Source: Moniliella sp. 'wahieum'
Lineage: Eukaryota
Reading direction: 5' to 3'
Assembly (NCBI GenBank): GCA_003971905.1
Contig: RSEE01000124.1
Span: 62,001-126,000, forward strand
DNA length: 64,000 nt
Part shown: positions 3,064 to 39,174 of the stretch, piece by piece
How the letters are laid out: each line of letters opens with the position of its first letter
How positions within the stretch are numbered: position 1 is the first letter of the stretch
Notes under the pieces: generated by a model
Seen by the model: the letters and a program-made list of their open reading frames with translations, nothing else
The model's database searches: none
What the model was told of the DNA's origin: nothing
Program-made: the position numbers and the translations under genes

Positions 3064-6000
3064 TTACACTAGGGCCGCCTTGACCTCGTCCGGGGCATGG
3101 ACGGCAAGGTGCTGCAGCGCAGCCTGAACAAACGTTTGGACCGACGTGGTGTTGGCTTCGGCAAGTGGGAGCGAGGCCAAGTCGGTGAGCCGAACGGGAG
3201 CTTGGGCAGCAGCAAGCTTGGTGAACGATGCTTGGAACCCACCCTCCTCGAGATCGAGCATGTGCATCGCCTCATCCTCCCCTTCGGGCAGCGCGGCGGA
3301 ACCGACGTGACGGTCTGAGCAAGTGAGCGCGCCAGGGCCGGGGTGACCGACAGAAGCGGGGGTGCGAGCATGGCAGGTTCCTTGAGCAACCGGGCGAGAC
3401 CTGTGAGTGCCTGGCGTTGTTGGTACGCCGGGAGCTGTGGAAGGCTCGGTACAATAATGCCCGACAAGAGCTGAGCAAAAATGCCGGCCTGCACCTCGTC
3501 CACCGCGCTGATCACAGCGCCTGGGTACGGCGCCGGCAGACAGGCCAGCCCACCAATAAACCCAATAAACGCATGGGTAAACTTGTCTGTCCGCGCCGTC
3601 TGCAACCGTTGGAGGATTAGCAGGAACGCGGGTTTTTTCAGCGGCGTAAGCACGTTGCTGCAATCCGGGTGGTCAGTACAAGAACAGGTAGGGGTATGCG
3701 GGGATTGGGGGAGACGTACTCAGGCAAATACCGGAAGATGGCAAGGAGCAGGTCAAAGCCATGCGTGTCGAGAGCACGCGAGGTGATGAGGCGTTGGTAG
3801 ATGCCCATCAAGTTCACCACTTGGTTGTTGGCGACAAACGATTGTGCGCCAATTGCAAGGAACGCCTGGAAAAGACGGACGAGAGCGGGGACATTGCCGC
3901 GTTGCTCCCACAGGGCGGGCGTAAGGAGCGGAGGGACAAGCTCTTGGTAAGAGCTGGGCAGACCGGATGCCGATGCCGGGTGCAGTTCCAGCATCTGCGC
4001 CAGGACTTGGAACACGTAGGGTACAAACTCGGCCGCATCATTTTGGAGGATAGTGGTAAAGGGAGGGAAAAGGGATTGCTCCAGGGGTGCCAGCCGGACG
4101 GCAACCTCGTCGCCAGCATTGGTGGTGACAAAACGCACGAGGGCGGCAATGGACTCGAAGAGGAACTGGTTGAACCGGGGGTTGGACGGGTTCTTGGCCA
4201 CTTCCACCAAGATGGCCGTCAGTTGGCCCAAGATGGGTGTGGCAAACGGCGTGAGGGTGGTGCGAGCGGTGAGGATGAGGCGCATGACACACTTCATCAG
4301 ATAATCGTTTTCCGCAATCTTTTCGGGGGTGCCGCCGGAAAGGATGGTATGGAAACAAGCCATCAAGATGCGCTCCACAAATGGCTGAACGTCTTCCGCC
4401 GTGAACAACGGGGGTCGGAATCCAGTCGCCGCACCTGCTGCCCCGGCTGAGGCCGAGGTGCCCATCGCGGCGGCCGCAGAACCAGCAGGAAGAGGCTGCT
4501 TCATAAACAAGATCCGCTCGATCGAGATTGCAGCATAAGAGACTGTCACGTACGACTCGGATTGGAGATGTTGGACCAAGAGGGGCAACACCGAAAGGAG
4601 TTGGGGCTTGGAGTGGTTGCGGAAGGTGTAGAGGAACTTGATCGCATCGACTTGGAGAATAGGATGAACAGAGCCGGGAGCGGCCTCAAGGTCAGAGTAC
4701 ACATTGGTAGAGAAAAATTGGACCACATCGACGAGGGTGTTGACGCTGTTCACGCCCCCCTGGCGTGTGGCACCTTCGATCGCCACACCAGTCAAGAGGT
4801 AGAGGGCGGTATCTTTCTGTTTCCAATTGGTAACGGGGTCCGCAGCATAGGTACTCAAGTACTGGGCAATGTGGCCCTCGATGATGCCCGTCATGGTTTC
4901 TGGGAACTTGTGCAAAAGAGCACGGGTAAAGCCCACAGCGGCGGTGCGGCGAGTATCTGATGTATCCCCTGCACCGGAGGCACCCACAGCGGTGGCGGCC
5001 GCTGTGCCTGCATCGAGATCACGACGAATGTACTCCATCGGGTTGTCTTCGAACAATTCTTCGTCTGCCTCGCGCAGCTGAGCATTGGGGAGAATGATGG
5101 ACTGCGTCAACTGCTGCAGGGCATCAGAAGAGGAGAACATGGCGTTGTTGTTGCCCATGCGGACGACAGTAGAGAGCAAGCCAATGGCCTTGGCCACTAG
5201 CAGGTCGTATCTCCCCCGGGTCCGGTTGAAGAGAGCATTTCCCACACTGCCTCAATCAGCGGTGGCACGTGCTCCTCAAATACATCCAGGAAGCGCTGGC
5301 AATAGAGCTCGGCTACCTCGCAGATCCCGGCGCGAATCTTCTCTAGTGGCCCAGCCTCATCCGAAGAGTCGTCAGCATCACCCACCAATTCTGGCCGTGA
5401 GAAACGCAGCCAGCGAAGAAGGAGCGGAACAATGAGAGTGGAGAGATTGTCCTCGAACGCGGGTGGAAGGTCTTGGGCGCTCAAGTCGTAGAAAAGAGAG
5501 ATCTCCAGACTGAGGGCGTTGGCCAGGGCGGGAACCTGGGCGGGTGGAGTGGAGGGGTTGGTGAGGGCCTCGTCGGTCTTGCGAAGCAATTCAAGGAAAG
5601 GAGGATTGAACTTGGCAAGGACAAAGTTGATTTCGGACCAAAGGGCGTCAGAGCGGAAGGCAGCGCGCCACTTGCGGAAGATAGTGTGGGCGGTGTTGAG
5701 GACAGAGAGGAGAATGCCCTGGTCCGGATCAGTGAGGCGGGAAACGAGCTCGTCAAGAAGCTCGGGCCAGGCATCGGGGAAGTCGTGATCGGCAACCTGG
5801 GCAACGAGTTCGGCGAGCTGGCTGCGGAGGGCTGAGGAGGAGGAGGCCGAGGTGGCGGCGACTTGCCAGAGGACAGCAAGACTTTGGGTGCGCACCTGTG
5901 GCTTGTCCGAGTCGGGGACGACCTGTTCAAAGTCGTCTGTGGCGACCCACCCGGAACGGGCGAGGTTCTTGACGTTGGGGCGGCGGCCAGGCGCACGGCA

Positions 6001-6158
6001 AGGGGGAGCTGGTCGGTGGCTACCAGGGTAAGGGCGAGGGGAGCGTACCCAGGCGTCTTCTGGGCAGCAGCGAGCTGGGTCTCGGCGTCCTTGCGGACAG
6101 CGAGCTCGGGAGAGAGGGTGGCCTGGAAGAGGGTGGCGAGCTGCTGCGCCGGGTCCAT
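3064..6158 (-). CDS. CSE1: Exportin-2 / importin-alpha re-exporter Cse1; intron ~3658-3719; several frameshifts
   Basis: Importin-beta N domain (LFQATLSP..RKDAETQL), DFPDAWPELL, AQDLPPAFEDN, EELFEDNPMEYIRRDL, VDAIKFLYTFRN, KNPSNPRFNQFLFESI, EFVPYVFQVLAQMLE, GNVPALVRL. Confidence 0.95.
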
Positions 6159-6439
6159 GCTGAATGCGGGCGCGGGCGGTGGGAGGGAGGAGGCAGGAGG
6201 GGGGCGGTGTGGTTGCCCATTCGTTCTACGGGGGAGGAAAATGCAAATTCCGCCCCGCTCCGCCCGCAGCTGAGACGCGCCAGAGCAACAGGAGCAACAC
6301 CACGCACCCGCCACCCCCGCCTGCTTACCTCAGCCGGTGCACACGAGCGTGCCCACTCCTTAATTCTCCGATCCCCACCGCCGCCCCCTTTCCTCCCTAC
6401 GCCCCTTGAGGGTACTAGCTAACATCACCATCCACTCAG

Positions 6440-7556
6440 ATCATCGATGAGATCTGCCCACGCACCAAGGACTCGATTTTAGGTCTGGGCGAACGCATGT
6501 CGTGCCGGATCGTCGCAAGTGCGCTAGAGGAACAGGGCACTCCCAGCACACTCGTCACTCTGGAGAACGTGGTTGATGCGACTCTTTTGGAGCAGGCCGG
6601 GGTTAGCGCTGACGCCCCGTCCTGAACCACTTCTTCTACTCCCACCTGGCTCACCGGCTAGGCGATGTTCTGTACGCTGTGCCACTCGACCACGTTGGTC
6701 GTCACTGGATACGTTGGTTCGGTCCCCAGGCCGATCCTGGACCAAGTCGGGCGCGGGTACACTGATCTTTGTGCGGCGCTGTGCAGTGGGAGTGGCGACA
6801 GAGGAGCTGCAGATTTGGAAGGAAGATAACGGTGTCTACTACCGATCCTCGCAAGGTGCCCTCTCCCCGTCTAATTCCTGCCATCTCTCTTGAGGAGGCG
6901 GCTGAGCTCGCCCATTACGGCTCGGAGGTCATTCATCCTTTCACTATGGAGCAGGCGATCCGCGAAACGATTCCGATCCGGATCAAGAACGTCATGAATC
7001 CTGGGGCAGAAGGGGCTGTCATTGTGCCCACACTTGATGAGCATCGACCAGCCTAGTAGTCCTTTGGCCGTCGGGGCACAGACGCCTTCACACGCCGTGC
7101 CTGGTTCTGCGTCCGCACCTGCTCCCAGCGGTCTGGCCAAGGAGGGCTGATGGCGCCCGAATTTTACGCACGTATCTTCAGTGTGTTGAACCGGTACGGC
7201 GTCCCGGTCGATTTGATCGCCACCTCCATGATGCATATCTGGATGGCCGTCAGTGCTTCCAACCGTCACTGCTCAAAATCAAAGAGGAGATGATCCCGGT
7301 TGGGACAGTATCGCTTATCCGGGACATGACACTTGTCTCGCCGATTGGGAAAGAAATGCGGCACATGATCGGTGTGGCAGGCCAGATGTTTACCACACTT
7401 GCCGATGACCAGATCAACATTGAGCTCATCTCCCAAGGCGCCTCAGAGATCCATTACTACAGTCGTGCATCGCAGGAACGCACTCAAGACCATCAACCTG
7501 ATCCATTAGGCAGCCCTAGAGGTGCCCCTTCCGGTGACAGCTGGAGGGAACTGTAG
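6440..7556 (+). pseudogene. HOM3: Aspartate kinase (HOM3-like), 5'-truncated and degenerate
   Basis: PRTKDSILGLGERMSCRIV, GYTDLCAA, ELQIWKE, TDPRKVP, EAAELAHYGSEVIHPFTMEQAI, PIRIKNVMNP and ACT-domain INIELISQGASEI. No KFGGTS N-terminus in the ~280 bp left before the CSE1 start. Confidence 0.75.
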
Positions 7557-8492
7557 CCGTTCCTTTTTCTAGCCTTGCGCTCTAGCCCCACTTTGCCCCC
7601 TTTGCTCTTCACTCTCTTTTTCTTCCTTAATCTTCCCCTTCCCTTCCTCTCTTCCCCTTTTCTGTACCTCGTCCTATCAGTCTGCATGTTGCATTTGTAC
7701 TTGTGCCCAACGCCACAACCAGTATGCGCGGCGCTGTTTTTTTCACCCTGCATACTGGCCTCCAACAGCCTGGTTTCCCCTTCCCTGTTCCCATCTGATG
7801 ATCATCGCCGCTATTTATTGTAAATGTGCACCGCAACTATGACAAGTTCATGATATCCCTCTCCTTGCTATTCATCAACATATAGGCCCAGTCCAATTTT
7901 CTACATCATCCCAAGCCCTGTCCCAATCTCAGCGCTTCGAGACTATCGGCCCTTGTAACCCAGATTCTCGTCCCGCATCGTCACACGTCTCTCCTTCGTA
8001 CAGAGTGTCACCGACATCATCATCAAATGTTGCCCACACAACCCATCTTGTTTCGCAACCGGTATATGCCTATGAACTGCCTTTCCTTGTCGGCGCCCGT
8101 GTTGACCAACACACGTCGTCCTCGACAGATGCAACAGAGTCAATGGCTGTCATGTGTGCTTGGACTTTCTAGCGTGGCAAGCGACCCTATCCTGTGTCAT
8201 TGCCTTCCATCCGTCCCCCCTGGCGGCAGCTCTTCCACCCGAAACTCGCCAACACCTCAGGCCTCACGATGGTCGATACCAACAAAATAAAATGGCCAGC
8301 TCGTCCATCTGTTGCTCAGGCCGCCCAACTGGGCCGAGGAAAATGAAAGATTACCGATTAGGAGCGCCTGTCTCCAGTTCCATTTAATTAACCTCCCTCG
8401 GGATTAGCCAGAGTGGAGATCTGAGTTCCGCGGATGTTCTGCTTTCACCATCCCCAGACAAACGTGGATGTTGTTGAAGCGCCCGAGGGTGC

Positions 8493-9657
8493 ATGTCCTA
8501 CCTGGCGCGTCTGGCCACTGCCCTCCCCTTGTCTTCTGTCCCGATGGCCAAGCAACAGTACGTGTACGCAGTCAAGCGAGGACGCCAATGCGGCGTCTTC
8601 CCCACCTGGGCCGAAGCCGAACAGGCCACCAAGGGCTTCCCCGGCGCGGTCCATCGCAAATTCCCCGCCAGCGCAGCCGACCAAGCCCAGCGCTGGGTCG
8701 ACGCAGTTGGCCCATCCTCCGCATCGTCTTCCCTCCCTGATCGAACCCCACCGCCGTCCTCGTCCGAGGCACCAGTTGCGAAGAAGCTGCGTCCTAACCC
8801 GCCGCACGCCCTGTATGCCGTCAAGTCCGGTCGCCAGACGGGTGTGTTTACGTCGTGGTCGGAGGTGGAGCCGCTGGTACGGTCGTACCCGGGAGCCAAG
8901 TTTCGCAAGTTCCAGCTCGGCCAGGATACCGAAGCACAGGCTTGGGTGCGGCCCAGCCCTCCTTCGACACGACAAGTATTCCCCCCCCAGGGCCAGGGTC
9001 AGGACCAGGCCAAGCCCGCCGCCCGGTCTACCATCATTCTGCCGGACGACGTGGTTCTGCCTGCCCCGGTGCGCGCTCCGTCCCAACCAGCCTCTGACCT
9101 GTTGCGCTTTCCTGCCCATCTACGTTCGGTTTTGCAGCGATTTAGCGGCCGGGAACCCGAGGCGGAACGGGCGGGAAAGGTAAATGTGTGGTGTGACGGG
9201 TCGAGTCTGTCGAATGGGAAGCAAGCCGCGCGCGCCGGGTGGGGGGTCTACTTCCCTTCGACGTCAGAGTATGTGGGGCTAACCGAGGCTGGGCGGCTTG
9301 AAGGCCTGCAGACCAACAACCGCGGCGAGTTGATGGCGATTGCGCGGGTGTGTGAGCGGCCCTTTGTCGGTGGACGTACGGATTCATACCGACAGTCAAT
9401 ATGCGATCAAGGCGCTGACCCAGTGGTCCTCTGCGTGGGAGCGGCGCGGGTGGAGGACGGCCGAGGGCAATGAGGTGCAAAACCAAGACCTTCTGCGCTG
9501 GATCCTGGGGATGATGAAAGAACGCCAACCCGAGCTGGTCTATGTCAAAGGGCATGCGGGCGATGTGGGCAATGAAGCGGCTGACTGTCTTGCTCGCTTT
9601 GGCGCCCTCTTGCCACCCAAACCCGTCCCGCTCTTGCTCTCACCAGCAGCAATTTGA
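8493..9657 (+). CDS. RNH1: Ribonuclease H1 with two N-terminal hybrid-binding domains (one frameshift ~9360)
   Basis: YAVKRGRQCGVFPTW..FPGAVHRKF and YAVKSGRQTGVFTSW..YPGAKFRKF; catalytic VWCDGS, QTNNRGELMA, IHTDSQY, VKGHAG..GNEAAD. Confidence 0.93.
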
Positions 9658-9803
9658 CGACGTTGAGATCCGTATACCAATCTATCGCATCCCCGCCGAG
9701 GCAAGGCATTGAATGGTCTTTCATCCTAATAGGGCAAGGAGGAGGGGGGCGAAGGAAGGAAAAGAAGGGAAGGAGGAAAGGAAAGGGAGAGGAGGGTAGG
9801 TTG

Positions 9804-11352
9804 TTACCGCCATGCTGCCGAAACTAGCTTACCAACAGTGTGGAGGGCATAGAACTTGACGTCCTTGTCGTCGTGAGACATCAGCTGCATTAGCCGCACC
9901 TTGGCCGGGGAGAGGTTAGCCAGTCGCTTGGCCGTTTCGGACACGACCACAATCTTGCCCAGATCATTGGCTGCAACAGCGAGGGTGGTAGGATCTTCGC
10001 CGTGAGCGATCAGGTCAAGCAGCTTGTTGAGACCGGTACAGTGATCCTCCAACAGCTGCGGGGTGGCCGACAGCCAAAACTCGTCCGATTCGTGCAGCGG
10101 GTTGTCCCATGTCAGCCGGCCCGAGTCAAGCTCGGCGAGGTAAACATCGAGAGTGGTCATGCTCTTCAACTTTTCGGCCAAGGCCTCCTGTAGTTCGTGC
10201 AAATCCGCAGTAAGATCTTCGTCGCTCCATTTGCGCCCTTCCAGGTTCTCTACCAGAGGCAAGACCTTCGCTCCGAGAAGAGCATTAGCATTAACCTCAG
10301 GGGCCTTGTGCAGCAAGTTGGCAAAGGTTGCCATCACGACGCGGATAACTTTCTCCTTGTTGGTCGCTGATCCCACTTCGCTAAGCACGGTGATGACAGG
10401 CAACTGATCGCCGTTCAGCTCAGCAGCGATCTGCGGATCAAACGAAAGCAGCCAAAAAACGAGGATGATCTGGTACTGATACTGCGACACGAGACCGCCA
10501 GCGGTGGCACGAGTAGACGACCCTGCACTTGCGCCCGCCCCTGCCGCAGCACCAGCACCGAGCGTTTTGCTGAGGATGTCCAGCAGTTTCTTGAGCAACG
10601 GGGGGGAAAGGGGCCAGAATTGAGTGCGCAACCGGCTGTTGCGCAGCAATGCATTGAGCAGCTGGGTAGCCAAGTCGAGCGCATTGCCGTCGGCATACCC
10701 GGTACCAGTAAGGAACGAAGGCGCACCAGCCTCCTCTCCAGCGCTCTAGAGAAGGGTGTAAATGTAGTCGACCAGACGGGCAAACACGCCAGGCGGCGGG
10801 GGTGTCTTTTCCGACACGAGAAGCAGCAACAAGAACTGGGCAGCCTTGACCTGCACAAACTCATCCTGGGCATCCAAATGTCTGTACGATCTTCTGTTAG
10901 CCTTGCCAATGAAGAAGTGGGAGAGGAAGGAGGCCGGGAAAGTAATACATACTTCAGAAATGGTCCCCAGGGCAGGGCAGCGGGCAGAGGTGCATCGGCC
11001 GGAGCATCGACCGGATCGGCGGCAGCAGCGAACAGGAGCTGGGCGCGGTCGTCACGGCCAGTAAGGAGGTCGTCGATGAGGACAAGGATTTGCTGGAGCG
11101 TGTCGGTGCGAGAAAGCTTGGTGAGGAGACGGAGGTAAAGAAGGGCATACTCGGGGGCATCTGCGTCGGCGACGGGGGTCTCCCCGCCGGCACGGGGCTT
11201 GTCGACCTTTTTAATCAGCTTGAGCTCGGCGGCGGACACGAGATCGGCACGCTGGTATCCTCCCAGGGGATGGGGCGGCTGCGGATGCGCTGTGCGTTGG
11301 CATCGAGCCAGGCGGAGCGGATGGGCACGAGCGGGATGGGCGCAGCAGCCAT
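9804..11352 (-). CDS. VMA13: V-type ATPase subunit H; intron ~10882-10952
   Basis: IRSRPIPWE(G)YQRA, QYQYQIILVFWLLSF, KEKVIRV, RKWSDEDL, YLAELDSGRLTW..LH.SDEFW, LAVAANDLG, KVRLMQLMSHDDKDVKFYAL. Confidence 0.93.
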
Positions 11353-11768
11353 GGCAGCGGGTGGGAGGGGCCGTGGGTGAGAGGCGATCCCAGCGGCGGT
11401 GGTGAGTTGGCGCCGACTGGACCTGAATTGTATGGGCGTGAATTCAGCCGCCCCGTTGAACATTCAAGTTCAGTGTCCAAGCGTCAAACTTCAAGCGCCC
11501 GAACCAGCGCCCAGACCATGCGCTCCGCTGACGTCAGCCCGCCCGCCGGGCACAGTCACGTGCGGAGGCTGCATTTGAAATGGGCAACTGGAAGGGCGCC
11601 CCGCTTTTGCAGGGCGGATGCATGATGATGACGCATGATGGATCCATTGCAATTGCAATACTTGATGCTGGCTTCTCGCGGCCATTTCTTCGGGCAGCGG
11701 AGCGGGCGGTGCGTGCGAGTGTGTCGGAGAGGTGCCGGGTGGTGGTGCGGCTGCTCCTGCTGCCACCC

Positions 11769-13410
11769 ATGGTCCCTCGCCACCTCCTCGCCCGCTCGTC
11801 CACGGCGGCGGTCAGGCTGGTGTGGCCTCCGCCACGCGTGCTGCCGCGCCACAGCGACCGCCACGGCTGCCGTCGCAGCCGCCATGCCTACTGCGACGTA
11901 TGTCCCCGCCCTGCCAGCTGCGCTCGCTGCACACGTCCGTTGTCGTGTCCAAGAAGGACGCAACGGGCGAAAGCTTGGCAGCGCGCTTCCCCGAACGCTT
12001 TGGATCCGACTCGGTGCTGAACGGGGTGGAGCGGCTTCTGCACGTGCGCGACGTTCTCCATGCCCAGGTACGTGCTTGTTCTCTTGGCATGTGCGGCGAC
12101 TGACTGGTACATGTCTGCCCCACCCCGCCCGCAGCAAGAAGCCAACCCTCATTCTGTCTCGGTATCAGCATCTCGTGCCCTCGGACTGATAGACCCTCTC
12201 TACTACCGGTACCAGGCATACGTCGATCTGGAGCGGCAGCAGGTACAGTCGGCGGAACTCGCCGCACAATCTGCCGCCGACGCGGACGAGGAGATGCGTG
12301 CGTTGGCAGAGGAGGAGGAGGGGCGGTAATCCAACGCTTGGCCGAAGAGCGCATGTCTATTCGCAGTCATATTATTTCCCTGTACGACGCACTATACAAA
12401 GCGGGTGTCCAGCTGATCAAGGCCCGCGCTAGCTCGGCCAGTGTGCGTGCCGACGTGACTACGGGCCTCACTGGTACCCGCGAAGTGCGCGCCGGCGTCG
12501 AACCAGAGGGCGTCATTGTCGAATGCCGCCCTGGTGTGGGCGGTGGCGAGGCAGGTCTGTTTACCAACCAGGTGGCTCGTATGCTGCAAAAATTCGCTAG
12601 CAATGCTGGCTGGCTGGTAGAATCATGTCCGCTACTCCTATGGAAGTCAGCACCACCACCCAGCAGAGCTCGGAAGCGATGAAGGAAGTGTTGATGCGCA
12701 TCACCGCCCCGCGCCGGCGAGGAAGGGAGGATCAACATCTACGAGCGAATGCGGTGGGAAGGAGGCGTTCACCGTGTCCAGCGCGTTCCGATCACCCAAA
12801 GCACGGGAAAGCTCCAAACCAGTACCATGGCTACCGTCGTGCTGCCCATCATGCCCGAACCAACCGAGAAGAGCGACGAATTCTATATTGATCCCAAGGA
12901 AGTTCGTGTCGAAACCATGCGCTCTTCTGGTGCCGGCGGGCAGCACGTCAACAAAACCGAAAGTGCCATTCGCCTCACGCACGAACCCACGGGCACCGTT
13001 GTGCGCATTGAGGACAGTCGTTCCCAGCACCAAAACCGTACCAAGGCGTGGATGGTTCTCCGGGCCCGTTTGCAAGAGCGTGTTCGCCAGGCCGAAATGG
13101 CAGATAGTGTGGCAATGCGCATCGAGCAGGTCCAGACCATGGACCGCTGGGACCGCATCCGCACCTACAACTTCCCTCAGTCCCGCGTCACTGACCACCG
13201 CGCTGGCATGTCAGTCAGCAACATTGGCTCCTTCATGAACGGCGACTTTGATGGCGACTGGGATCAACCCAGAGGCGGTTTGGCCATGTTTATGAGGAGT
13301 GTCGCCGGTTAGACCATGAGCAGAAGCTGGTCCAAATCCAGACCCTGTACAAACAAGTTCTTCAGGTCGTTCACAGTACCCATCCGGACACCCCAACGAC
13401 CTCATCCTAA
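11769..13410 (+). CDS. MRF1: Mitochondrial peptide chain release factor 1; intron ~12068-12134; frameshifts
   Basis: Arg-rich presequence-like N-terminus; GVGGGEAGLF, EGGVHRVQRVPIT (PxT), SGAGGQHVNKTESAIRLTH, SRSQHQNR, IRTYNFPQSRVTDHR. Confidence 0.9.
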
Positions 13411-13724
13411 TGCAACTTCAAGGTAATATAACAAAGAAAGGATTATAGTATGTGTATAGGACGAGAAACTGCGGGAATAGAATACGATTCAATAAGGTTC
13501 TGTCCACATACCGGTCGGAAAATAAGAACGAAGAAAAGTGTTTGCGTGTCCAAGCGATCCTTCATCATGTAGACTACAGAGCATATCACGCTCGTACCGC
13601 GGGGGCATGCTCGGTTTTCGTACATCATATGAAGTGGTTGTGGAGGGCGGAGGCGTAGTTGCTAGTATTAGTTGTCGTGTAATAATAGGGGTCTGGGGCC
13701 CTCTGTTACTATAGAAACTAAGAT

Positions 13725-13898
13725 TCAAAAGTCAACCGAATCGCATGTCCAGGCTACCATGCCAGTGAATAGGTAGATCCATTGTTTCAGCGTGAGCATC
13801 GCAGCCAACTTGATGGGGTTGTTGGAGGCCCCATGACGCTCGGCAAGGCGCTGCTCGCGCGTAGGCAGCTTAAAGAGCCCGTGGGTAATGTCGTACAT
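13725..13898 (-). pseudogene. JEN1: 5' stub (57 codons) of a JEN1-type MFS carboxylate/H+ symporter
   Basis: Manual translation MYDITHGLFKLPTREQRLAERHGASNNPIKLAAMLTLKQWIYLFTGMVAWTCDSVDF* resembles the Jen1 TM1 signature NP..L..L...QW..F..G..AW..D..DF. No continuation before the MRF1 3' end. Confidence 0.75.
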
Positions 13899-13969
13899 GC
13901 CGATAGAGGGGGTGTGGGGGCGGGTCGTGGGTCGTGGGTCGTGGGCGTAAAAAGGGGGGGGGGGGGGTG

Positions 13970-13976
13970 TATATAT
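13970..13976 (-). promoter_or_regulatory. TATA box upstream of the JEN1 stub
   Basis: ATATATA followed by a C/T-rich leader ~70 bp upstream of the ATG at 13898. Confidence 0.5.
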
Positions 13977-16269
13977 GAGGGAGCGGATGGCCTGTGGGAG
14001 CTGGTTGCGGGTGGGATGCGGCTATAAGAGAGAGCGCACCACCATCCCCACACTCGGATTCGGACGGCACAATGTCCCATCAAGCCAGTGTGTGGGCTGG
14101 CCAGCCAGTATAGGACGATTATATCTCGTGCTCACGCGCTCAAGCGCTCACGCCTCGGCAGGCCTCCCTCCGTCTGCTGCCCAGCCCAACACACCGACAG
14201 CCCTGAATGGCGGGACCCTGCCCTGTCAGCACGCAGCCGTGTCCTGTCTTGCCACATACCAGGCGCGGTTGGGGTCCAACGGGCGGGATTTACTTGGTTG
14301 ACGTTTTTGAGTACTGCCTACTGCGTACACTCCTTAACTCACTACCCTTAGGCTCACAGGTGGGCGGATGAGCTCGAAGGGCGCTCTGGCCAGGCCCACT
14401 TCAAGCTTCAGGCTCAAGGCACTCGCCTCAGACCCTCAGGCGAGCCCTGTTGTGCCTCGCCAGTATCCTCCGGATTCTCCGTTCGCCCAGCCTGCAACCG
14501 CAGATCGCCACTGCTCCCCTGGACCTGTGCCTGATGCCCCGCACGGCTCCGCGCCAGTGCCTGCTTTTGTCCAGGCCTGCCCCCCATCGCATTGCAAGTA
14601 CGAGGTACTACGTAGCACGTAGGCTTTCGGGTAGTACATGGTATGCAAAAGGGTATACATGGTATGACATGATGACACTCTTAGATGGCAGGGATCTTAG
14701 TAGTTACTATCTACTAGTTACTATTGGCTACTAACTTGATCGATGATCCTAGGGGTTTTTTTTGTTCCGCCCCGCATGTTTCGCCCACAAGGCACGTACA
14801 CACGCGCCGTGCCTGGCGTCGAATATATTATCGCGGTGGCGAGGACGGGGCTGCTGCGGGTCGCGAACAGGACGACCGGGGAATAGAGTATCTGTACTGA
14901 GTACTGAGTATAACTGTATGAGTACGAGTCTCAGTACGGAGGTACGGAGGCATACTGAGGTACTGAGGCCCTATAGGAGCTTGGGGCTTGGGGCTTGGGC
15001 CTGAGCCTGAGGACAGATACGAGATGAGATCGATGATCAATTGACGACAAACTGAGGGAGATTGGCACGTGCACATATGTATGTATCCGACCGCCCAACC
15101 GCCTCTGTCTCCCTATCGGGGTCCGGCGACACGGTCATCATGCATCATCTGCATCATCGATCATCCACATCGAGCATCTTCCCCCATACACTCCTAGAGG
15201 TGCACCGTGCCTGTATGGTGGCCCTCTACCGACGCCAGTGAGTATACTGAGTGGGCGAATGGATAAGCGCATGGTGGATGATCGATGAGATCTGAGATCG
15301 GAGATCCGAGATCGAGGACCGCTCCTCAGCTCGGGGCCCCACCTGCGTACCTCCTGTGTCTTCCTGCGGCACAGTGCTTGGCCTGGGAAAAAGGCAGGAT
15401 CGAGGATACTACAGTGGGATCTAAGATGGCCCGCGGCGCTGCTCAATGGGAGAGCTAATCCAGGGAGCTATTTTGCTCACCGCACTCAGTGAGTACTTGC
15501 TTCATTTCCCCACCAACCCAGGGTGCGGTTCTTGGCACTCAGTTAAGTACCTAACCGTCACGCGTCAGGTACCTTTTATATATCAATCCCCCCCCTCTCT
15601 CTCTGAGATTTAACCTCCTTTCTCTCAAACCCCCCGTTAATCAATCTTAGTCATCCTAGATCTCTCCGGACCCACCCGCAGGTACCAGCACCTACGGGTA
15701 TCATTCGAAGCCACACGTCCATCCTCTGCATCATCAATCCCAACATTCAAGCTTCAAGCTTCAGAGCTTCAGGCTTCAAGCTGCACGCCTGAGGATTCGT
15801 AAAAAGGGTGCAAAAGCCGGAGGGATATAGGAAACAGGAACGAAGGGGAGGGAGGAGGGGCAGCAAGGGTCTTCAAGCTTCAGCCTCTATTTGTTGAGAA
15901 TGGAACGGGTGTGCTCTCAAAAGCCTCAAGGTTCAAGCTTCAAGCCTGCTGCACCCACATCATCGACATCTTCTGATGAATTTGATGGATCCCCTGAACA
16001 ACCTGTGGTCCAACCCACGGTTCAGGCAGTTGAGGCTGGCAACTTTCGTATGGTTTAGTTTATAGTAGGGGTGAACTTGGTACAGTACACTGTCCATACC
16101 CGAGTTATACGAGAAACAGCCTGCAGGGTGTATAAGCATAGCAGACAAAAAACAAACACAAGGAGGCACAAGTGAGGCGGTGGAACGTGGATCCTACTAT
16201 CGTCTTACATACAAGATCCGACAAAACCTTAGATCTTACTACCGTAGGAAAAGAAAGGCAGATACGTAC

Positions 16270-17149
16270 GTGGATCAGTGGCCCAGCAGGGCAATCCCGA
16301 CCCTGAGGTCTCAGCCTGACGCCTGTAGCCATCCCGATCAGGTCCAGGGCAGTCCACACAACGTAGGTGTTCTGTATAGCCAACAGCCTGTTGGGATACA
16401 TGAGAGCCAAAGCGGTAGGTAGCAAAGAGGAAAAGAAGATCGAGGTACCTGCAGTCCAGCAAAGTCGGTTCCGATTAACTCTTCTCGCGGCGTCTCGTCT
16501 TCGTAAACGACGGAGGGGAGAGAGTAGCCGAATCCGATACGCGCCCAGTGGCGAAACAGGGTGTGCGTCCCCGTTCAACGTTCAACGAAGGGGAAGACAC
16601 AAAGCGGTGATGGTCGTAGCGTCCCAACAGAAATAAAACCCGGGCTAGGTCGCGGGTTGGGCTCCAGCGCCCAATGGCACCGGAATCGTCCCGACGGGTA
16701 GGCTGTGTTTTTATGGTCGATTGCGGCGACATTCTACCTGTATATAACAGACACGAGGGGCAAACTTGGCGGCGAATTGGGTGACCAGCCATTAGTAGTG
16801 GGAGAGCAACTTTTGTTGGCGAGAAGCAAAACCGGTACACGGCACGATGAGCAGGTGTATAGGCGATGCGAAAGATCGAGCGCAGGGTCGTATCCGTCTT
16901 AGCGGGAGGTACCAAAGACACGGAAGAGCACGAGGACGTACTTGGCAGTGGCGACGCTGGCAACACCGAGGAAGAACTGGAGGGCGTTACCGGACCTGGA
17001 GGATGTACATGTATATAGCTGATGGTGAAGACAAAAAGCCGTCTTGGGATTGAGACCGCGGACCGACTGGGCTTCGCGGATGCGCTGACGGACGAGGTAG
17101 GGGTGATGTCGACGTGGATCAGGTTGCCGAGGAAGCGGGAGAAGTTCAT
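16270..17149 (-). pseudogene. Divergent ER lumen protein-retaining (KDEL/HDEL) receptor ERD2-like sequence, frameshifted
   Basis: Colinear pieces across frames: MNFSRFLGNLIH, QRIREAQSVRGLNPKT, YDPALD.FRIAY, LLIVPC, LFATYR..LMYPNRL, DLIGMATGV, compared with ERD2 MNIFR..GDLSH, KI..S.S..GIS.K, YD...DTF..EYL, LGAYRALY..NW, DLIAIVAG. Confidence 0.55.
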
Positions 17150-17476
17150 GGGCAATGGGATCCGGGGTGGGGGGGTCGCACCAGTAGATACACCCAAACT
17201 GCGGGGTGTCCGTCGCGGGAGCCGTGTGCTGTGTAAAGTCACAGGGGAGCAACAGCGTGGGGCTAGGGTTAACCCTAGTGCGCCTCCGCGTTTCTGCTAC
17301 CCGCTTGTATCCCACTGTTTTCTGTCTCGCCGTTGTTCAGCTGAACGCTGCGTTGCTGAGCGCCGTCCCCCCATCGCACCCCCGACTGCTTCCTCAACCT
17401 ATATAGACCATCCGCTACGCTCGCCGCCGACCCATCGCAAATGTGATCGATCGGACCCTCGCACTACCACGCCAGA

Positions 17477-19150
17477 CTAGTCGTCGTCCCAGTTGGGGTT
17501 CTGCTTCGGCGCCTTGATGCCCGCCGGCTTGGCCATGATGATCGAGTCTACGTTGAGCACCGAGATGGCGGCACCAAGTAGCGTACTTGATCGCCCACAG
17601 CTTGGCCGACAGCGCATCCAGCACGCCTGCCTTGGTTGCCGACGTTACGCCCGTGTCATCGTTGTTGTCAATGTCCACCCACCTCGGCCTTGCCGTCCTG
17701 GTGCGCGGCATACAAGCGCGCAATCACCTCGGTCGCGTCCAGCCCGGCGTTCTCCGACAACGTCCGTGGCACCACCTCCAACGCCGCGCCAAAGCGCTTA
17801 ATTGCATGCTGCGCAAGCCCGGGCGTGCGTTCCCCCAGCTTGGTCACCACCTGTGCCAACTCAATCTCCGTCGCACCTGCCCCAGGCACCAGGCGGGCGT
17901 CCTTGGTAAGCGACTTGACCACATTCACACCATCGTCAATCGCCCGCTCCACATCGTCCAGCACATTCGACGTGGCACCACGCAAAACGATCGTAGCCAT
18001 TTTCGGTTTGGCCTTGCCCCCAGCCCTTGTGGGTCTTGGCGGAAGACAGTGACTCGGTCCCCACCAATCTCAACCACCTCGATGGCGTCGATCCAGCCAG
18101 CCTCCTCGGGCAGGGGCGCACCAAGCCGCGCAAGCGGCGTCGCACCCACCAAACGCGCCAGACGCGCCACCTCGAACTTGGACAGGACCTTGATACAGAG
18201 AATGTTGTATCGGTTGAGGTAGTGGAGCGCCAACTCGCCCACAGAAGATTGAGACACCACCACCTTCACCCCTGCATCGGCAATTTCCTTGATGGCCTTC
18301 TCCAGCTGTGCCTCTTCGCCCGCCGAAAAGGCTTGGAGCTCTTTTGCGTTGTGCAGCAGGACCGTCCCTTTGGTCTCTGTCTGGCTAATATCGATCCCCT
18401 GGGTAAAGATAGCCACCTTACCTCCCTTGGGAAGGGCGCGTACTGAGCCTTCGGGTGTTTACCAAATACCATGCCGCGTAAGACTTGCGACTGCGCCAGC
18501 GATGCACCCAGAATCTTAACCACCCGCACATTGTCCACATTAAACCCAGCGAGCGATGGCTTGGTCTTGTTCCCGTCCGGTAGGACAAGAGAGATAGCCT
18601 GAGCAACGAGCGGAGCAAGGAGCGTCTCGTTGCCATACTGTTTGCTTGCTAGAACGGGCTGGATGGCCGTGGTGAGGGACTCAAACCGTCGGTGGGGACG
18701 CCAACTGCGCCACCGAAAGTTCTTCCAACGCTGCCAGCGCAGCGTCCCGCGCCGTCTCGTACCGGCAATAATCTCGCTCGGGTGGAGACCAAGCGTGACG
18801 AGCGCTTCGGCCTTCTTGAGCAGTTCACCAGCCAAGATCAAAACCGTGTTCGTTGCATCGCCCATCTCGGCCTCTTGTTGTTGCGAGGCCATGACAAGGA
18901 GTTTCGCAGCGGGATGAACGACTTCGAGTTCGCGAACGATGGTGGCAGCGTCCGAGGTGACAAAGAGGCGCTCCAGATGGTTGATGACCATCTTGTTGCG
19001 GCCATTGGGGCCAAAGGAAGTACGCACAATCTCACACAGCTCTGTGACGGCAGTGATGTTGCGCAGCACGGCATCTTCAATGCCCGAGTACTGTTTGTAC
19101 CCCTCTTTGAACAGCTGCGGACCGCCCGCACGGGGAACTTTGGGAATGGC
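17477..19150 (-). CDS. CCT8: T-complex protein 1 subunit theta (CCT8); start codon garbled, frameshifts
   Basis: KVPRAGGPQLFKEGY, RTSFGPNGRNKMVINHL, VTSDAATIVRELEVVHPAAK, EMGDATN, FNVDNVRVVKILG, TETKGTVL, LDDVERAIDDG, PGAGATEIELA, C-terminal QNPNWDDD*. Confidence 0.95.
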
Positions 19151-19548
19151 GGCGGAAGGAGAGAAGGTGGTGGGAGGCCAAGCAGGAGGAGAGCGCCACG
19201 CAGCACGTTGCCCGCCGCGTCTCTCCGCTCTTCCTGGCCGCGCCGAAGCACACAGAACCCGCGCCACCGGAATTGGGTCTCTGGTTCCGCCCCAGCCGGT
19301 TCGCCCCCCTTGCAACGTTCAAGAATGGGTGTTATGCATGTTATCGATTATCATGTTCAGCGTTCGTTCAAATTTCAGGCTTTCAGACGATGGTGCGATT
19401 GCAACTTTCAAACTCAGGTCTCTGCCTCCGTCCAGCCGACCATCTATCCTTCCATCTCCCCCCCCAGTCTTTGTACGATCGATCCTTGTGCAGACATGCA
19501 GAATTCGCATCCCATCCGCTCGGCCGGCGCTCCTCCGCCCCATTCATC

Positions 19549-20130
19549 TCACCAGCGCTTGTAAGGAAGGAACTTGCCCGACAGCGTGATCTTGACCCGA
19601 TCCCCGCAGGGTTCTCCTCCTTCTCCACCGACCCTTCAAAGTCAATCGCACTCATGATGCCATCGCCAAACTTTTCGTGGATAATGTTCTTGATCGGGTA
19701 CCCATACACATGACGATTTCCTGTAGCCGGACAATCACCGGATCTACATCCCCCCCCCACCCATCGTGCACCATGCGTCAGCCAATTAGCAAAAGCCCAC
19801 TGCACGAGACCAACCAGCACAAATGATAGGCTTCAACGTACCTTTCGGAGGGTTTTCGCCGAGTCCGCGATCGGGGTAATATTCCGATCCAAGCGACGCT
19901 TCCAAGTACTCATACCGCACGTCCAGCACTTGGCTCAGTTTTTCCAAATCTTCCTTGGTCGGCTTGGCTTGGCCATAAAAGATGGCAGCCGTGTACAGCT
20001 CGTTGCGGCCGAGCTGCTTGGCAATCGCCTCAAACGACAGCTTCTTACGCTTCTTGGCATCCGACAAGGTGGTGAAGATCGACGGAAGCTCGGTCAGCAC
20101 CTTGGGGCGGCTGGGAGTCGCGTTGCTCAT
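19549..20130 (-). CDS. CYN1: Cyanate hydratase (cyanase); intron 19744-19841
   Basis: [77 protein letters not shown]. Confidence 0.93.
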
Positions 20131-20646
20131 GGCTCTTGTTGTGTCGCAACCGGCGTGGGAAGTGATAGGGATTCCAGAGGGGTACACCACGGTAGTGGAG
20201 GTGGGAGGTAAGGGTGTTGGTGGACCAAAGAGATGTCGCTTGGACCAACGTGTGGAGGAAGAAGAAGAAGAGAGGCAGGCGGTCGAGCGAAGATCAAGAG
20301 GAGAGGGGATGATCGATGGGGGAGATCGGGGACCGTACCCCAACCTGGCTCACTTGTAAGTGGCTGACCCGGCCCGCTGAGCGGCTGAGCGAGCGGCTCA
20401 GGCTGCGCTCAGCGGTCCCGGGGGGACCGTGCACACTGTTTAAGCCCGCGTTAACCCCAGCCGGGCGCTTGGCCAGGCAAGCCTCTCAGTACTCTCAGTT
20501 CTCAGTCTCAGTTCTCAGATCTCACGATCTCAGTGCGCTCCGTTGCAGCGCACCGAGGTCGTACTCGCCTTTGTCTTGGCGGCGGGCACAAATTCAACTT
20601 TCAAGGGAGACCCGCTGAGGTAACCAAGTGCGTGTGTCAGTCCTAG

Positions 20647-20683
20647 TCAAGCTTCAAGCTTCAAGCTTCAAGCTTCAAGCTTC
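20647..20683. repeat. Tandem heptamer (TCAAGCT)5
   Basis: tcaagct x5 + tc read directly. Confidence 0.95.
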
Positions 20684-20827
20684 CCTTCGGCTGCTCAGCC
20701 GCTCAGCGAGTAACTGGTCCCCCTCGAGCGGATAGGGTTCGCGGGGTTCGCTGGGTTACATAAGCACAGGCTCGGTTTACCGAAATTTCTCCGGCGGCGA
20801 CTCGCAGAAAGCACGGAGAAGACGAGC

Positions 20828-21880
20828 GTGTCTCCACCGCCTCGCCCACCGTCGCCTGAACAACTGGTCCGGCTACACTCTCTGCGTCATTGGCGCCGGC
20901 ACGATGGCGTTGCCATCCTCTCGGGCGTGCTGGAAGCCAAGCGGGAGGTGCAAAAGTCGAGCCCGGTCCAGCAGGGCGACGTGTCGTTGGCCTCGAGCTT
21001 GACGGAGGAGGAGTTGCACCAGCTGCCGTCGTCCTTTCTTGCGTGCGTTAACCGTGCCGAGTCGGGCGGGCACTGCGCAAGCTCTTGGACCGCGAGGGGT
21101 ACTTTGAAGTGGAGGTCGTGGTGAAAGGCAATGTCCAGGCAGCTGAGCGTGCCGACGTCGTCCTCTTGGCTGTCAAACCTCACTTTCTCGCCGAGGTGAT
21201 GCAAGACCTGGGATGAAGGAAGCGCTGGACGGAAAATTGGTCATTCCATTGCTGCGGGGTCCGGATTGATCAGATGAAGCAATGGGTTACACCAGCTACC
21301 AAGGTGGTTCGTGCCATGCCCAACACCCCCTCCAAAATCCGCGAAGGCATGACCGTCCTCACCCCCTTGCCCCCGAACCCGGATGGTACACCCAACAAAT
21401 TCGATCGCGCCATCCTCTTGTCCATCTTTACTGCAATTGGACGGGCTCGGTTCCTCGAGGAGAAGCATTTTGATGCCTCTACCGCCTTGGCTGGCTCGGG
21501 CCCTGCATTTGCCTGTGTCTTCCTCGAGGCCATGGCAGATGGCGGGGTTATGATGGGTCTTCCTCGTGCAGAGGCATTGGAACTGGCCGCCCAATCGATG
21601 CAGGGCGCTGCGAGGATGGTGTTGCAATCGGGAATGCATCCAGCTGCTCTCAAGGATAGTGTGACCAGTACGTTTCTCCCCATGTCTTTGTTTTTGTTTT
21701 GTTTTTTTTGTCTACTTTTGTGGTGGACCCATCTAACTTCTGTAACTTTGCTTAGCGCCTGGCGGATGCACCATTGCGGGCCTACTTAACCTCGAGGATG
21801 GGCGCGTGCGGTCCACAGTCGCTCGTACCATCCAGGCTGCGACGGAACATGCTGCTGGTCTGGGTCAGAGCAAGAAGTAA
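20828..21880 (+). CDS. PRO3: Pyrroline-5-carboxylate reductase; intron 21668-21755; start approximate
   Basis: CVIGAGTM(G), ADVVLLAVKP, VVRAMPNTP, TALAGSGPAF, AMADGGVMMGLPR, HPAALKDSVT|TPGGCTIAGL. Confidence 0.93.
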
Positions 21881-21892
21881 TGGAACAGCAGG

Positions 21893-22560
21893 TCAATCTG
21901 TACTAGAGGCAACAGTCGATTTCGTCTTGAATATGATTGATGCATCACGCAACAAATGGATGGGGGGAACGACACGCAAGAGTACAGCGAACAGAAACGA
22001 GGGAGGTTGAGCGATCAGGACGGTGCACATTCTATATCGTTGTGCCTTCCAGGCTGTTGGGTTACGCGTTCCCAGGTACCGCCAGCGTCGCAGCGCCGAC
22101 GACAGGTGCCTCAACCATGTCGACAGGTCGATTCCTTCCTCCTGGTCAGAAATGACGACCGCGTCGACTTGCGCAGGGGGGCGGAGAGACGTTGCTGCTT
22201 CCAACATCACATCAGACATCAAATCCTCAATGTTCATCACCTTGATCTTCTTGAACACCTCCAGGTGGACGCAGGTTGCGGCAAGCACGGACATTCCGAT
22301 AGGCTGGATAGTATCCGCTGGCGCACCGGAGTGCAGGGTGGAACGGATAGTTGTACAGGAGAGATCAGGGGCGTAGCGGTAGAATACCAACCGAGGTTCC
22401 GGAACCGTCAACTTGGGCTGCAGCTCGTTGGCCGTCAACATGCCGATGGGGAACACCAATCTCAACGACTTCCCCTGAAGGGCGAGAATGATGATGTTCG
22501 TTTGGATTAGGCAGCGCTCGCACCGCTTCCTTGTCCGGAACCCTTTTTCATCGCCAATGA
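21893..22560 (-). CDS. Hypothetical protein
   Basis: Uninterrupted >200-codon ORF with protein-like composition, convergent on PRO3. No recognised motif. Confidence 0.35.
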
Positions 22561-22687
22561 TCAACGTACTTCCCGCACGCGCTCTAGAAGGGCGCCGGAC
22601 ATGTGGACCCGCGCACGTCGGTGTGGGTGCTGAGCACAAAGATGGGAACGTACTTGCCTTGCAGCGGAATGAGGGACGTGGGCGGTA

Positions 22688-22850
22688 GGCAAGACGCCGC
22701 CTTGACACAATATAGGTTACCTACTACCGCGTTGGCACGGTGCTACAACATCGAAAAAGCTCGGCGGGTGTTCGACTAAGAACGGTTGTCTCTTTCGAAG
22801 AGGAGGCCTACCGTTCGGTACAGTGGTGGATCAAGACCCATCCGAGATGA
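22688..22850 (+). pseudogene. 3' remnant of ERG26/NSDHL-like C-3 sterol dehydrogenase (extended SDR)
   Basis: Manual translation with indels: GKTP.LTQYR(V)TY TALARCYNIEKARRVFD*E.VVSFEEEAYRSVQWWIKTHPR*, resembling the Erg26 tail LT..RV.....R..NIEKA...LGY.P.V.LEEG..R...W. Confidence 0.65.
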
Positions 22851-23258: not shown

Positions 23259-25014
23259 CTAGGACTGAAGCAGGTAGTCCTTAGCAAGGCGACGAGCAAA
23301 GAACCCCTTGCACCGTTCGTACAAGTCTTGCCCGCAATAAAACCAAAAGCACCCAAACGCTGCGCCACCCAAGTGCGCCGCATGGCCCAACGCTTTCCAT
23401 CCCAACACAAGCCCGTACAGTCGACCAAGAGCAAAACCGACGTGGCTGTCGCGATGGACTGGGGCACAAACAAGGTCAACGGCCAACCACCTCGGCATCC
23501 GGCATCTCCAAGGCCAACAAGACCAGCAAACTGTACGCGCCCCCCGATAGACCGATGCTGGGGCGGACGAGATGATCGGCGTACTCTTGCATTAATTGTT
23601 GGGACCGCGTGTCCCCTCGTGGGCTGCACGAGCCCAGTGCCGCAAGAGACGGGTCAGAGTGACGCGCGCACGAATGGCGGAGGCTAGGTGGCCTGTTGCG
23701 CCGCCGACCGCGGCACCAGCAATCAAGATGGTGAACGAGAGGGGAGTAGGGACGATTCAGGTACATGCGGGGTGGAGGTACGTGCGGTCCGGTCTTTCCC
23801 CTTGTCAACAAGACCGTCCGGCGACATTTCACTTGCATGGACCAATCGCTCCACCGCGACAGAGCCAATGGAGTAAATCGCGATCCCATTGGCCAAGAGG
23901 TGGAGGGTAGATATATGTGTCCATCCCGATGTGAGAATGGTGTGTAAGCGCGGCACCTTTTGGCCTGCTTCATATGCCTTCTCTTTCATCAAAGCCCAGT
24001 ACAGATGTGGACGAGGAAAGAAAGGCGTAGTACGAGCTCCGGGCGCATGAGCTAGCACCTCCATCAGCCCTAATCGCACTCGTACCGGGCAATCTTGAAT
24101 GGCACATGGACCAGGGCGATCACCAACAGTGGTGCAACCATAGCAGCGTGTCCAGGGGAGAGGGAAAGGTACCTATCGCTCACGCTCAGGTAGGTGTTGA
24201 CCGTCCACTCCATCCAGCCCTGAGGGAGAACCGACTTGCCCTCTTCCACTAACATTCGAAGCACGTTGCCCAACTTGGCTGCGATCATGTGGGTGTGGGC
24301 AGAGCGTAACCGCGCCTCGCCCACCCCCAGGAATGGATCCTCCTGTGGGTCAACCAGCCACGCGTCCCGGTCTCGTCCAACCGAGAGGGATGGGCCTTCT
24401 CCATGTCCAGCGGCGAGGCAGCAGAGTCAGCAGACGCAGTGGAGGATGTGAAGGAAGTGAGATCCCCCAATCCCTTGAGGAGGGAAATGAGTTTCCCGCC
24501 AGGCGAGTTTTCCCGTTCTTGTGCCCGGACCGCACGAGCCAAGGCGGCCGACGATCGACACTGAAGTATGCGGCTACGACAATGGACAGTGCCAGCGGCG
24601 AGAGCAAGGGCAGTCGGACGGAACAGCGGGGGGGGGAAAGCCAAATTCGCCAGGCTTGGGATGGGGTGTGCCTGGGATATGGGCAAAGGGCACTGTGCGC
24701 ACTGCTCCCAGGGGAGCGTCCGCATTGGACCCCATCCTCGGCCCCTCCTTGGCAGAGCGACATTTCCTCCACGGGCATGTGGGCCGCAAGCCGAGCCAGG
24801 TCCTTGTCGCGCTCAGACAGGGGACCCGCACCCATACTTTGCCCCCGGGGTGGCGGGGGCGGGGGAGCGGAGGGTGATGGGGTTGCGGTAGAAGGCGGAG
24901 CGGGTGGGGCCCCACGGTCGGCAGGCGCGCCAGAGCGAGGCGACGTGTGCAGATGCGCTGCGTGTGGACGCGGCAGGAGCGCGGCGACGGGGCGCACCGC
25001 ACGCGCAACATCAT
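23259..25014 (-). CDS. PCP1: Mitochondrial rhomboid intramembrane serine protease (Pcp1/PARL-like); frameshifts
   Basis: ILTSGWTHISTLHLLAN, PSIGLSGGAY (catalytic GxSG), GHAAHLGGAAFG (catalytic His); Arg-rich N-terminus. Confidence 0.82.
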
Positions 25015-27797: not shown

Positions 27798-28119
27798 TGG
27801 GGCTGCGCTGGTGGCAGCTCCACCAGGTGCAGCCGAGGCCGTCGTCTCATTTAAGCCGGGCGGAACCACTTCTTCCTGCCGCCCGCGTGCGTTCCGCCCG
27901 AGCCAAGCATAAGCACCGGCCCCGAAAGCTTCAGGTTGAAACTTCCAACGGCGGGGCGCACGGACATTTGAAAGTTGCATGGGGCAGCCCCCTCCCACCG
28001 GCTGCCCATCCAGCCGATGCCGGCTGCTCGTTTACCGATTTCTCGACTTTCACGCCTCGGCCCGAACCATCTCCTCCCCCGCCGCCCCCCCCCCCCCCCC
28101 ACCCCCCCCCACCACCACC

Positions 28120-38222: not shown

Positions 38223-39174
38223 AGCTATACGTTTACCCCTGCCCCCCCCTTTTCCGCCACTTTTGGCATCCACATCAACCCCCACGTCCCATACTCTACA
38301 TGAATGCTTGACACATTGTTTACACGAGGACATGGCGTGCACGGGAAGCGTGTGGTGGAGATGCAAGTGGAGTGGAGGCAGAATTGAGGATGGGGAGGTT
38401 TGAGGTCTGATGGCCTGATAGGCGGGTTGTAGATCCGTTGGATGGCGCACCCACACTCTGTTGTCAGTATTAGTTCTTACATGCATCACCCCAACAGATC
38501 TAATCGAGCGATAATCGATAACCGGTGGAGTGGGCCAAGTCACCGATCCCTATCATCACCCACCACGCGCTATGCACCATGCGTCGTGGCCTCGCGGGGT
38601 CACGTGCTCCCCACGTGCGCGCCCCACGTGAAAGCACGCGACACTGGCGTGCTGCGGAGCGAACGGACGGGAAATGGTGGGAAAGGGTAGGAAAGGGCAG
38701 GAAAGCAGAGCGCCGCATTGACGTCATGCGCGTCATCATGACTCGGTCCCATCGTAGGGGGGTGGCGAATGGTGGGTACAGGCGTCTGTCTGCTGCTGGG
38801 ACGGCAGAAGTATCTGCGAGTGTCGGCAGATTGTGTTGGTTCAAGATGAACTTGACTTGAAGATTGAACGTTTCAACCGTTCATTCAACGCGGACCGGCT
38901 GAGCGGCGGACCGGCGGACCGGCAGTCCGGGCCGGGGCGAAGCCGAGTGCCCAGGTTTCATCCTCCGGCAAGCGGAAGCACGGCACCGCAGCTGGATTGA
39001 ACATTCAGATCCCACCTGCTCCCTTTCATAGTGTCTCTGGTCAAACTCGCGACCGCTGAGTTCGCCGCCCAGCAACTCACTGTGGCTGCCTGCGTCCCTC
39101 CATCTCGTTCCTCCCGACCGGCCACCGCAGCCCCCCACCCCCACCCCACCACTGCCGCTGCCCTCGCCGTACCC

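Follow-up and report, generated by a model that had tools for sequence, protein, structure and literature searches.

Why should pieces of conserved genes lie broken between housekeeping genes in a compact fungal genome? The question is raised by the left part of a 64-kb stretch of contig RSEE01000124.1 (positions 62,001 to 126,000) of Moniliella sp. 'wahieum', which we call the window; the DNA is nuclear and comes from a relative of the smut fungi (Ustilaginomycotina). A sequence-only reading had reported four such pieces there, namely an aspartokinase (HOM3) without its 5' end, the 5' 57 codons of the transporter gene JEN1, a decayed ERD2-like copy and an ERG26-like piece. We find the aspartokinase and transporter pieces to be as described, and our preferred explanation, to which we assign a probability of about 0.6, is that two native genes died where they stand and now persist between genes as decaying relics. 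For a compact fungal genome it is unusual to find an aspartokinase dead amid core housekeeping genes.

The aspartokinase relic

The features needed to follow the aspartokinase piece are these:

6440..7572, + strand: aspartokinase (HOM3-type) relic, C-terminal two thirds only (Pfam, tblastn, frameshift-aware alignment)
6418..6439, + strand: putative leftover of the 3' end of an intron, immediately before the relic (branch-like GCTAAC, followed by CAG at 6437-6439)
7507..7509, + strand: in-frame TAG in the relic, serine in two relatives (alignment)

In Pfam, positions 178-234 of the 234 in the AA_kinase profile and two pieces of ACT_9 were matched in three different open reading frames (ORFs) at 6766-7553, and AA_kinase positions 1-177 were not found at the relic. 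A homologue search returned 1,708 matches among 1,888 candidates, the best 120 of which were listed. By tblastn and frameshift-aware alignment, full-length aspartokinases match the window at 6431-7569 only, through residues 212-633 of 633 and in all three + frames, while the first ~210 residues have no match anywhere in the 64 kb. The alignment takes in residues 212-633 of homologue P0005 and 1-394 of P0002; it contains 8 frame breaks, and 243 of 358 positions are identical. It reaches the natural C-terminus and the natural stop is retained. Besides the in-frame TAG, the first ACT domain carries a deletion of ~12-17 codons.

By the branch and acceptor consensus, 6418..6439 is probably the 3' end of an intron. 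Because this end is kept upstream, the copy is genomic and not processed; the possibility of a processed (retro-copied) pseudogene was rejected on this evidence and on the absence of flanking direct repeats. Everything upstream of the last intron of the gene has been lost.

The relic is 67-68% identical to each of its two nearest relatives, which are 85.3% identical to each other, and the intact neighbouring gene VMA13 is equidistant from its own two relatives (75-77% identity). We then defined invariant columns from 62 of the best 120 listed aspartokinases, each of at least 500 amino acids, which gave 93 such columns in the span. The relic breaks 20 of the 88 that it covers (the other 5 coincide with gaps or breaks), against 2 and 1 of the 93 in its two nearest relatives. 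In a tree of 31 aspartokinases and the relic, the terminal branch of the relic measures 1.52 versus 0.13-0.19. In the same tree the relic is placed inside the Ustilaginomycotina clade (support 99), adjoining Parajaminaea (90), together with two database ORFs (99). Of what marks a functional aspartokinase, the complete kinase domain is lacking and the set of family-invariant residues is altered at 20 positions. The aspartokinase piece is a real, truncated and decaying gene under relaxed constraint.

The two relatives with which the relic groups are also those of the intact VMA13, so that nothing points to a foreign or an older parental copy; the homologue search for VMA13 yielded 29 proteins, none of them from a named smut relative. 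Aspartokinase is normally needed for threonine and methionine synthesis, and its loss would mean auxotrophy for threonine, methionine and isoleucine.

The transporter relic and two further candidates

The second relic lies on the opposite strand, beyond a mitochondrial release-factor gene:

13728..13898, - strand: JEN1-type MFS transporter, first 57 codons from the ATG (homologue search, tblastn)
13310..13709, - strand: expected site of the remaining transporter, nothing recognisable (frameshift-aware alignment)
12104..13309, + strand: mitochondrial release factor (MRF1-type), adjoining the transporter relic (Pfam PCRF, RF-1)

The 57-codon ORF, searched against 1.84 billion representatives, gave 14 proteins at E<=0.001. 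P0150, the top match (E 3.4e-25, 81% identity), aligns residue 1 on residue 1 over residues 1-57, and the transporter N-terminus finds the piece in the window at a tblastn E of 1.4e-29. Two of the 10 matches viewed are internally repetitive and unrelated, the others being transporter N-termini, and Sugar_tr/MFS_1 was present in three of the six matches scanned, P0150 included. Codon 57 is followed by a TGA at 13725-13727. Weak similarity goes on to 13710, the alignment crossing the stop to codon 62 with 48 of 62 residues identical, and then ends.

As query for the missing part we used the 100 residues that follow in the best relative, among them the transporter motifs of highest conservation. 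On the downstream 465 nt they scored 37, and the reference tails as a set 30-37, the level of shuffled DNA (mean 30.2, maximum 41 in 40 shuffles). The remaining transporter had no match elsewhere in the window, where a weak match at 56.2 kb did not hold. Since the release-factor gene lies ~400 nt further on, the missing part has been removed and not merely decayed. The transporter piece is a real relic of a JEN1-type gene, of which the first 57-62 codons are left. Relaxed constraint is a result for the aspartokinase only, the transporter piece being short, at 57 codons.

The other two pieces fared differently:

16478..17149, - strand: candidate ERD2-like copy, unconfirmed (ATG at 17149; the sole candidate located)
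22690..22850, + strand: candidate ERG26-like C-terminal piece in two frames, unconfirmed (by eye only)

The ERD2-like candidate lies in a 4-kb stretch (13.3-17.4 kb) that gave no Pfam match, also when 110 ORFs of at least 28 amino acids were scanned at E<=5. Its first ~12 residues, read from the ATG at 17149, may resemble the ERD2 N-terminus. No Pfam match to the candidate was obtained at E<=0.01, 5 or 10, ER_lumen_recept included, and PDB, Atlas and NCBIfam were likewise empty. A scan with a few short ERD2 motifs gave the N-terminal match at 17149 and a single non-colinear match at 16447. The codon-usage frames of the region are weak.

We take the ERG26-like piece to resemble, by eye and unconfirmed, a C-terminal motif that is generic to extended short-chain dehydrogenases. 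Searches of Pfam and NCBIfam, and of PDB with both frames, were empty; none of 55 homologue candidates reached E<=10, and the best Atlas score, 0.84, belonged to unrelated families. The + strand codon score is -2.3 to -5.0 here, and the adjoining minus-strand ORF at 21896-22720 is gene-like. As both pieces are short, these negatives do not prove absence, but visual impression is all that speaks for the two candidates. The sequence-only argument that the large truncations are not the work of read-level indel errors stands for the aspartokinase and the transporter.

Neighbouring genes and frame breaks

The G+C content of the window is 47-62%, and its many short open frames are typical of intron-containing eukaryotic genes. 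We scanned stop-to-stop ORFs against Pfam (145 + 128 ORFs in 5.2-23.7 kb; 150, 150 and 146 in the rest). Around the relics the scan and comparison with relatives gave the following genes:

3072..6158, - strand: CSE1/CAS exportin, left neighbour of the aspartokinase relic (Pfam IBN_N, Xpo1, Cse1, CAS_CSE1)
8478..9654, + strand: RNase H1 (RNH1), right neighbour of the aspartokinase relic (Pfam Cauli_VI, RNase_H)
9807..11316, - strand: V-ATPase subunit H (VMA13-type), intact control (comparison with two relatives)
17671-19318, - strand: CCT chaperonin subunit (Pfam scan)
19386-20349, - strand: cyanase (Pfam scan)
~20880-21877, + strand: pyrroline-5-carboxylate reductase, PRO3 (Pfam scan)
21896-22720, - strand: ORF with gene-like codon usage (weak prefoldin subunit 4 match, E 0.89; no Pfam match)
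25715-27300, - strand: IF2 gene, bacterial/mitochondrial type (conserved motifs over all three frames; ~9-11 frame changes)

The ATG of CSE1 is at 6158, ~280 nt from the aspartokinase relic. Relics apart, the block has ordinary biosynthetic and housekeeping content, for example PRO3 and TPI.

The block had been described as lying between intact genes. This holds only in part. Against two relatives VMA13 reads in one frame over 10877-9807 (1.07 kb). Several of the other neighbours are frame-broken, and VMA13 itself has an in-frame TAG at 10746-10748 (- strand; glutamine in two relatives), the gene being otherwise clean. An alternative code with TAG as glutamine was rejected, VMA13 providing a single instance and ~1,940 training codons none. 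From Pfam coordinates we drew up a junction table in which frame changes with <=29 nt of spare DNA were taken to leave too little for an intron. By this measure intron-less frame changes number one in CSE1, one in RNase H1, and two each in CCT, the IF2-type gene and RPL18. The breaks, including those seen by eye, are:

~5218, - strand: CSE1, no room for an intron
~9365, + strand: RNase H1, no room for an intron
near 12625 and 12710, + strand: two compensating breaks in the MRF1-type release factor, by eye
18025 and 18435, - strand: CCT, no room for an intron
20905, + strand: PRO3 reductase, inside the GxGxxG motif, by eye
41310-41560: RPL18, two in the junction table, three in 350 nt by eye
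~62100: DEAD helicase, no room for an intron

Several of these breaks sit at short mono- or dinucleotide runs and read as run contractions; they are unevenly spread, and homopolymer density gives no explanation. RPL18 still scores 99 bits over 72 residues against solved eL18 proteins, and with the protein so highly conserved, assembly error is the best reading of its breaks. The frame breaks of the neighbours are probably for the most part consensus indel errors of the assembly. The IF2-type gene, whose identity was confirmed, may be a pseudogene of full length, or else the consensus is very poor at this place. It was set aside as a third relic since RPL18, which is under clear constraint, has three breaks in 350 nt as well.

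Because the neighbours have so many frame breaks, we did not count frameshift density as evidence for a relic. What makes the case for the two relics is their truncation, the stop codons, the internal deletion and the loss of invariant residues. In an indel-rich assembly such as this one, pseudogenes are to be identified by truncation together with lost invariant residues and not by frameshift counts.

Other features of the window are recorded here in their own right. Long stretches of low coding potential, without Pfam matches, occupy 33.5-39 kb, 42-46.3 kb and 49-57 kb, a sparse gene content for a smut-type genome; at 50-54 kb the G+C content falls to 47-49%. Heptamer microsatellites, (TCAAGCT)n and others, recur between genes across the window (15746-15782, 20647-20683 and ~10 further sites). 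At 39060-40125 (+ strand) ~1.5 of the three expected mitochondrial-carrier repeats were detected, and at 23726-24172 (- strand) a rhomboid domain was matched at profile positions 4-36 only; each may be a broken gene or a weak match. A C-rich run of ~35 nt (82% C) lies at 28076-28110, in or beside an enoyl-CoA hydratase-like ORF. The window has no tRNA genes and no telomere repeats.

How the two genes may have been lost

In the explanation that we prefer, a deletion or a chromosomal breakpoint would have run from intergenic DNA into each gene, taking one side of it right up to the housekeeping neighbour, and the remaining pieces would then have drifted without selection. There is good support for the loss of part of each native gene through deletion (or a breakpoint), with neutral decay afterwards. 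As aspartokinase is as a rule single-copy and indispensable, another copy most likely provides its function, which would mean a duplication followed by loss of the copy seen here. The scale of that duplication may be local, segmental, or that of a whole genome or hybrid. Several points weigh against our explanation. Only two of the four reported pieces stand. Errors may account for some of the 8 frame breaks counted in the aspartokinase, and a local mis-join is conceivable. That both genes stood at these positions ancestrally, moreover, is only presumed, and the gene order of Ustilago maydis does not help: in the supplementary gene table of PMC8306574, CSE1, HOM3, MRF1, PRO3, cyanase, ERG26 and ERD2 are far apart, and the table has no gene order in common with the block even for the intact genes, so that it decides nothing about ancestral positions.

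A dead copy of a gene that is normally indispensable and single-copy calls to mind fractionation after whole-genome duplication or hybridisation, as the sequence-only reading had proposed, the relics being copies lost here and kept on a partner homeologous segment. One-sided truncations are what short deletions would leave, and two confirmed relics, possibly with more broken genes, lie within ~20 kb of core housekeeping genes. Yet no second copy of the aspartokinase or of the transporter, and no duplicated block, is present within the window; the relic groups with the relatives of VMA13, giving no sign of a diverged parent; and only half of the four relics were confirmed. Nor was such a polyploidy event found for Ustilaginomycotina in the literature on pseudogenes and genome duplication, as represented by titles and the opening parts of abstracts. 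The duplication or hybridisation reading is plausible, and our data neither support nor refute it; as the full explanation of the block we think fractionation unlikely. A stronger form is doubtful. In it the window would come from an unsampled Ustilaginomycotina lineage with a duplicated or hybrid genome and would lie in the copy that is losing its genes, one housekeeping gene after another being put out of action: the aspartokinase and the transporter early on, VMA13 with its TAG at a later time, and perhaps also the IF2-type gene. If true, it would be the first evidence we are aware of for polyploidy and fractionation in Ustilaginomycotina. Balanced rearrangements, inversions or translocations that cut genes and leave a half at each synteny breakpoint as in Lachancea, would account for the one-sided truncation of both confirmed relics at a junction between gene blocks, and truncated relics at breakpoints are documented in the excerpted text of PMC4937564. 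The gene order is also wholly unlike that of U. maydis in the table cited above. On the other hand, the complementary halves are absent from the window, and cutting an indispensable gene would still need redundancy, so we regard such rearrangements as rather improbable.

Under unitary loss there would be no duplication and no second copy, and the genes would no longer be needed, as when the amino acids come from a host or substrate. JEN1-type transporters are multi-copy and dispensable in relatives, with two in the U. maydis table, where HOM3 is listed once; and pseudogenes without prior duplication, some of them hitting functions essential in Saccharomyces cerevisiae, are described in excerpts of PMC2876123. 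Against this, all 62 near-full-length fungal aspartokinases are conserved at the 93 invariant positions, and the rest of the block is of the ordinary biosynthetic and housekeeping kind. The fungus would also have to live with the auxotrophy for threonine, methionine and isoleucine, and we consider unitary loss improbable. An assembly artefact, in which indel errors of the consensus together with local mis-joins make intact genes look broken, could draw on the intron-less breaks in CSE1, RNH1, CCT, RPL18, the IF2-type gene and others, several of them at short runs, and on the preserved conservation of RPL18. Indel errors, however, do not alter 20 of 88 invariant sites or triple the length of a branch, and do not remove ~210 codons of an aspartokinase or ~400 of a transporter, the search for whose missing part covered every frame and tolerated frameshifts. 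VMA13, ~2.2 kb past the end of the aspartokinase relic, keeps one frame for its 1.07 kb. Artefact is thus a very unlikely cause of the two relics. Capture of fragments, whether by mobile DNA or in the course of repairing double-strand breaks, had been offered as an alternative, and pieces of unrelated genes in intergenic DNA would suit it. It is disfavoured to the point of being scarcely credible: the 38 direct-repeat families of the window are all short or low-complexity, none flanking a relic and none element-like; no terminal repeats and no multi-copy carrier were seen at the relics within the window; and the retained intron end speaks against processed copies. The ends of the pieces include natural gene landmarks (an intron acceptor, a natural stop, a natural start), and phylogenetically the pieces belong to this lineage; both points favour native genes broken in place over capture.

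Broken in place, as we prefer, the aspartokinase leads to distinct expectations. If an intact aspartokinase exists elsewhere in the genome, the locus marks a history of duplication or hybridisation that is undescribed for smut-related fungi. If there is no such copy, the fungus is expected to be auxotrophic for threonine and methionine, and this would be informative on its lifestyle.

The relics share features with those of known systems. In Saccharomyces species that descend from a whole-genome duplication, fractionation leaves retained genes interleaved with dead copies of otherwise essential genes; the window has the same interleaving of retained and dead genes, here judged from 64 kb alone. 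In Lachancea, according to excerpts of Vakirlis et al. (2016; PMC4937564), truncated gene relics lie at rearrangement breakpoints, and the one-sided truncation at the junction of two intact gene blocks is alike; here a breakpoint is only a candidate. Similar too are the gene relics of hemiascomycetes, in the excerpted account of Lafontaine and Dujon (2010; PMC2876123): intergenic remnants that only translated similarity reveals, with stops, frameshifts and truncations, most yeast pseudogenes deriving from duplicated copies. The present relics differ from these in that no duplicate lies in the window, that one of them is a normally indispensable biosynthetic gene, that they stand among core housekeeping genes and not in subtelomeres, and that they belong to a basidiomycete, from the lineage of the smuts. 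Gene relics are a known kind of object, found here in a little-sampled fungal lineage.

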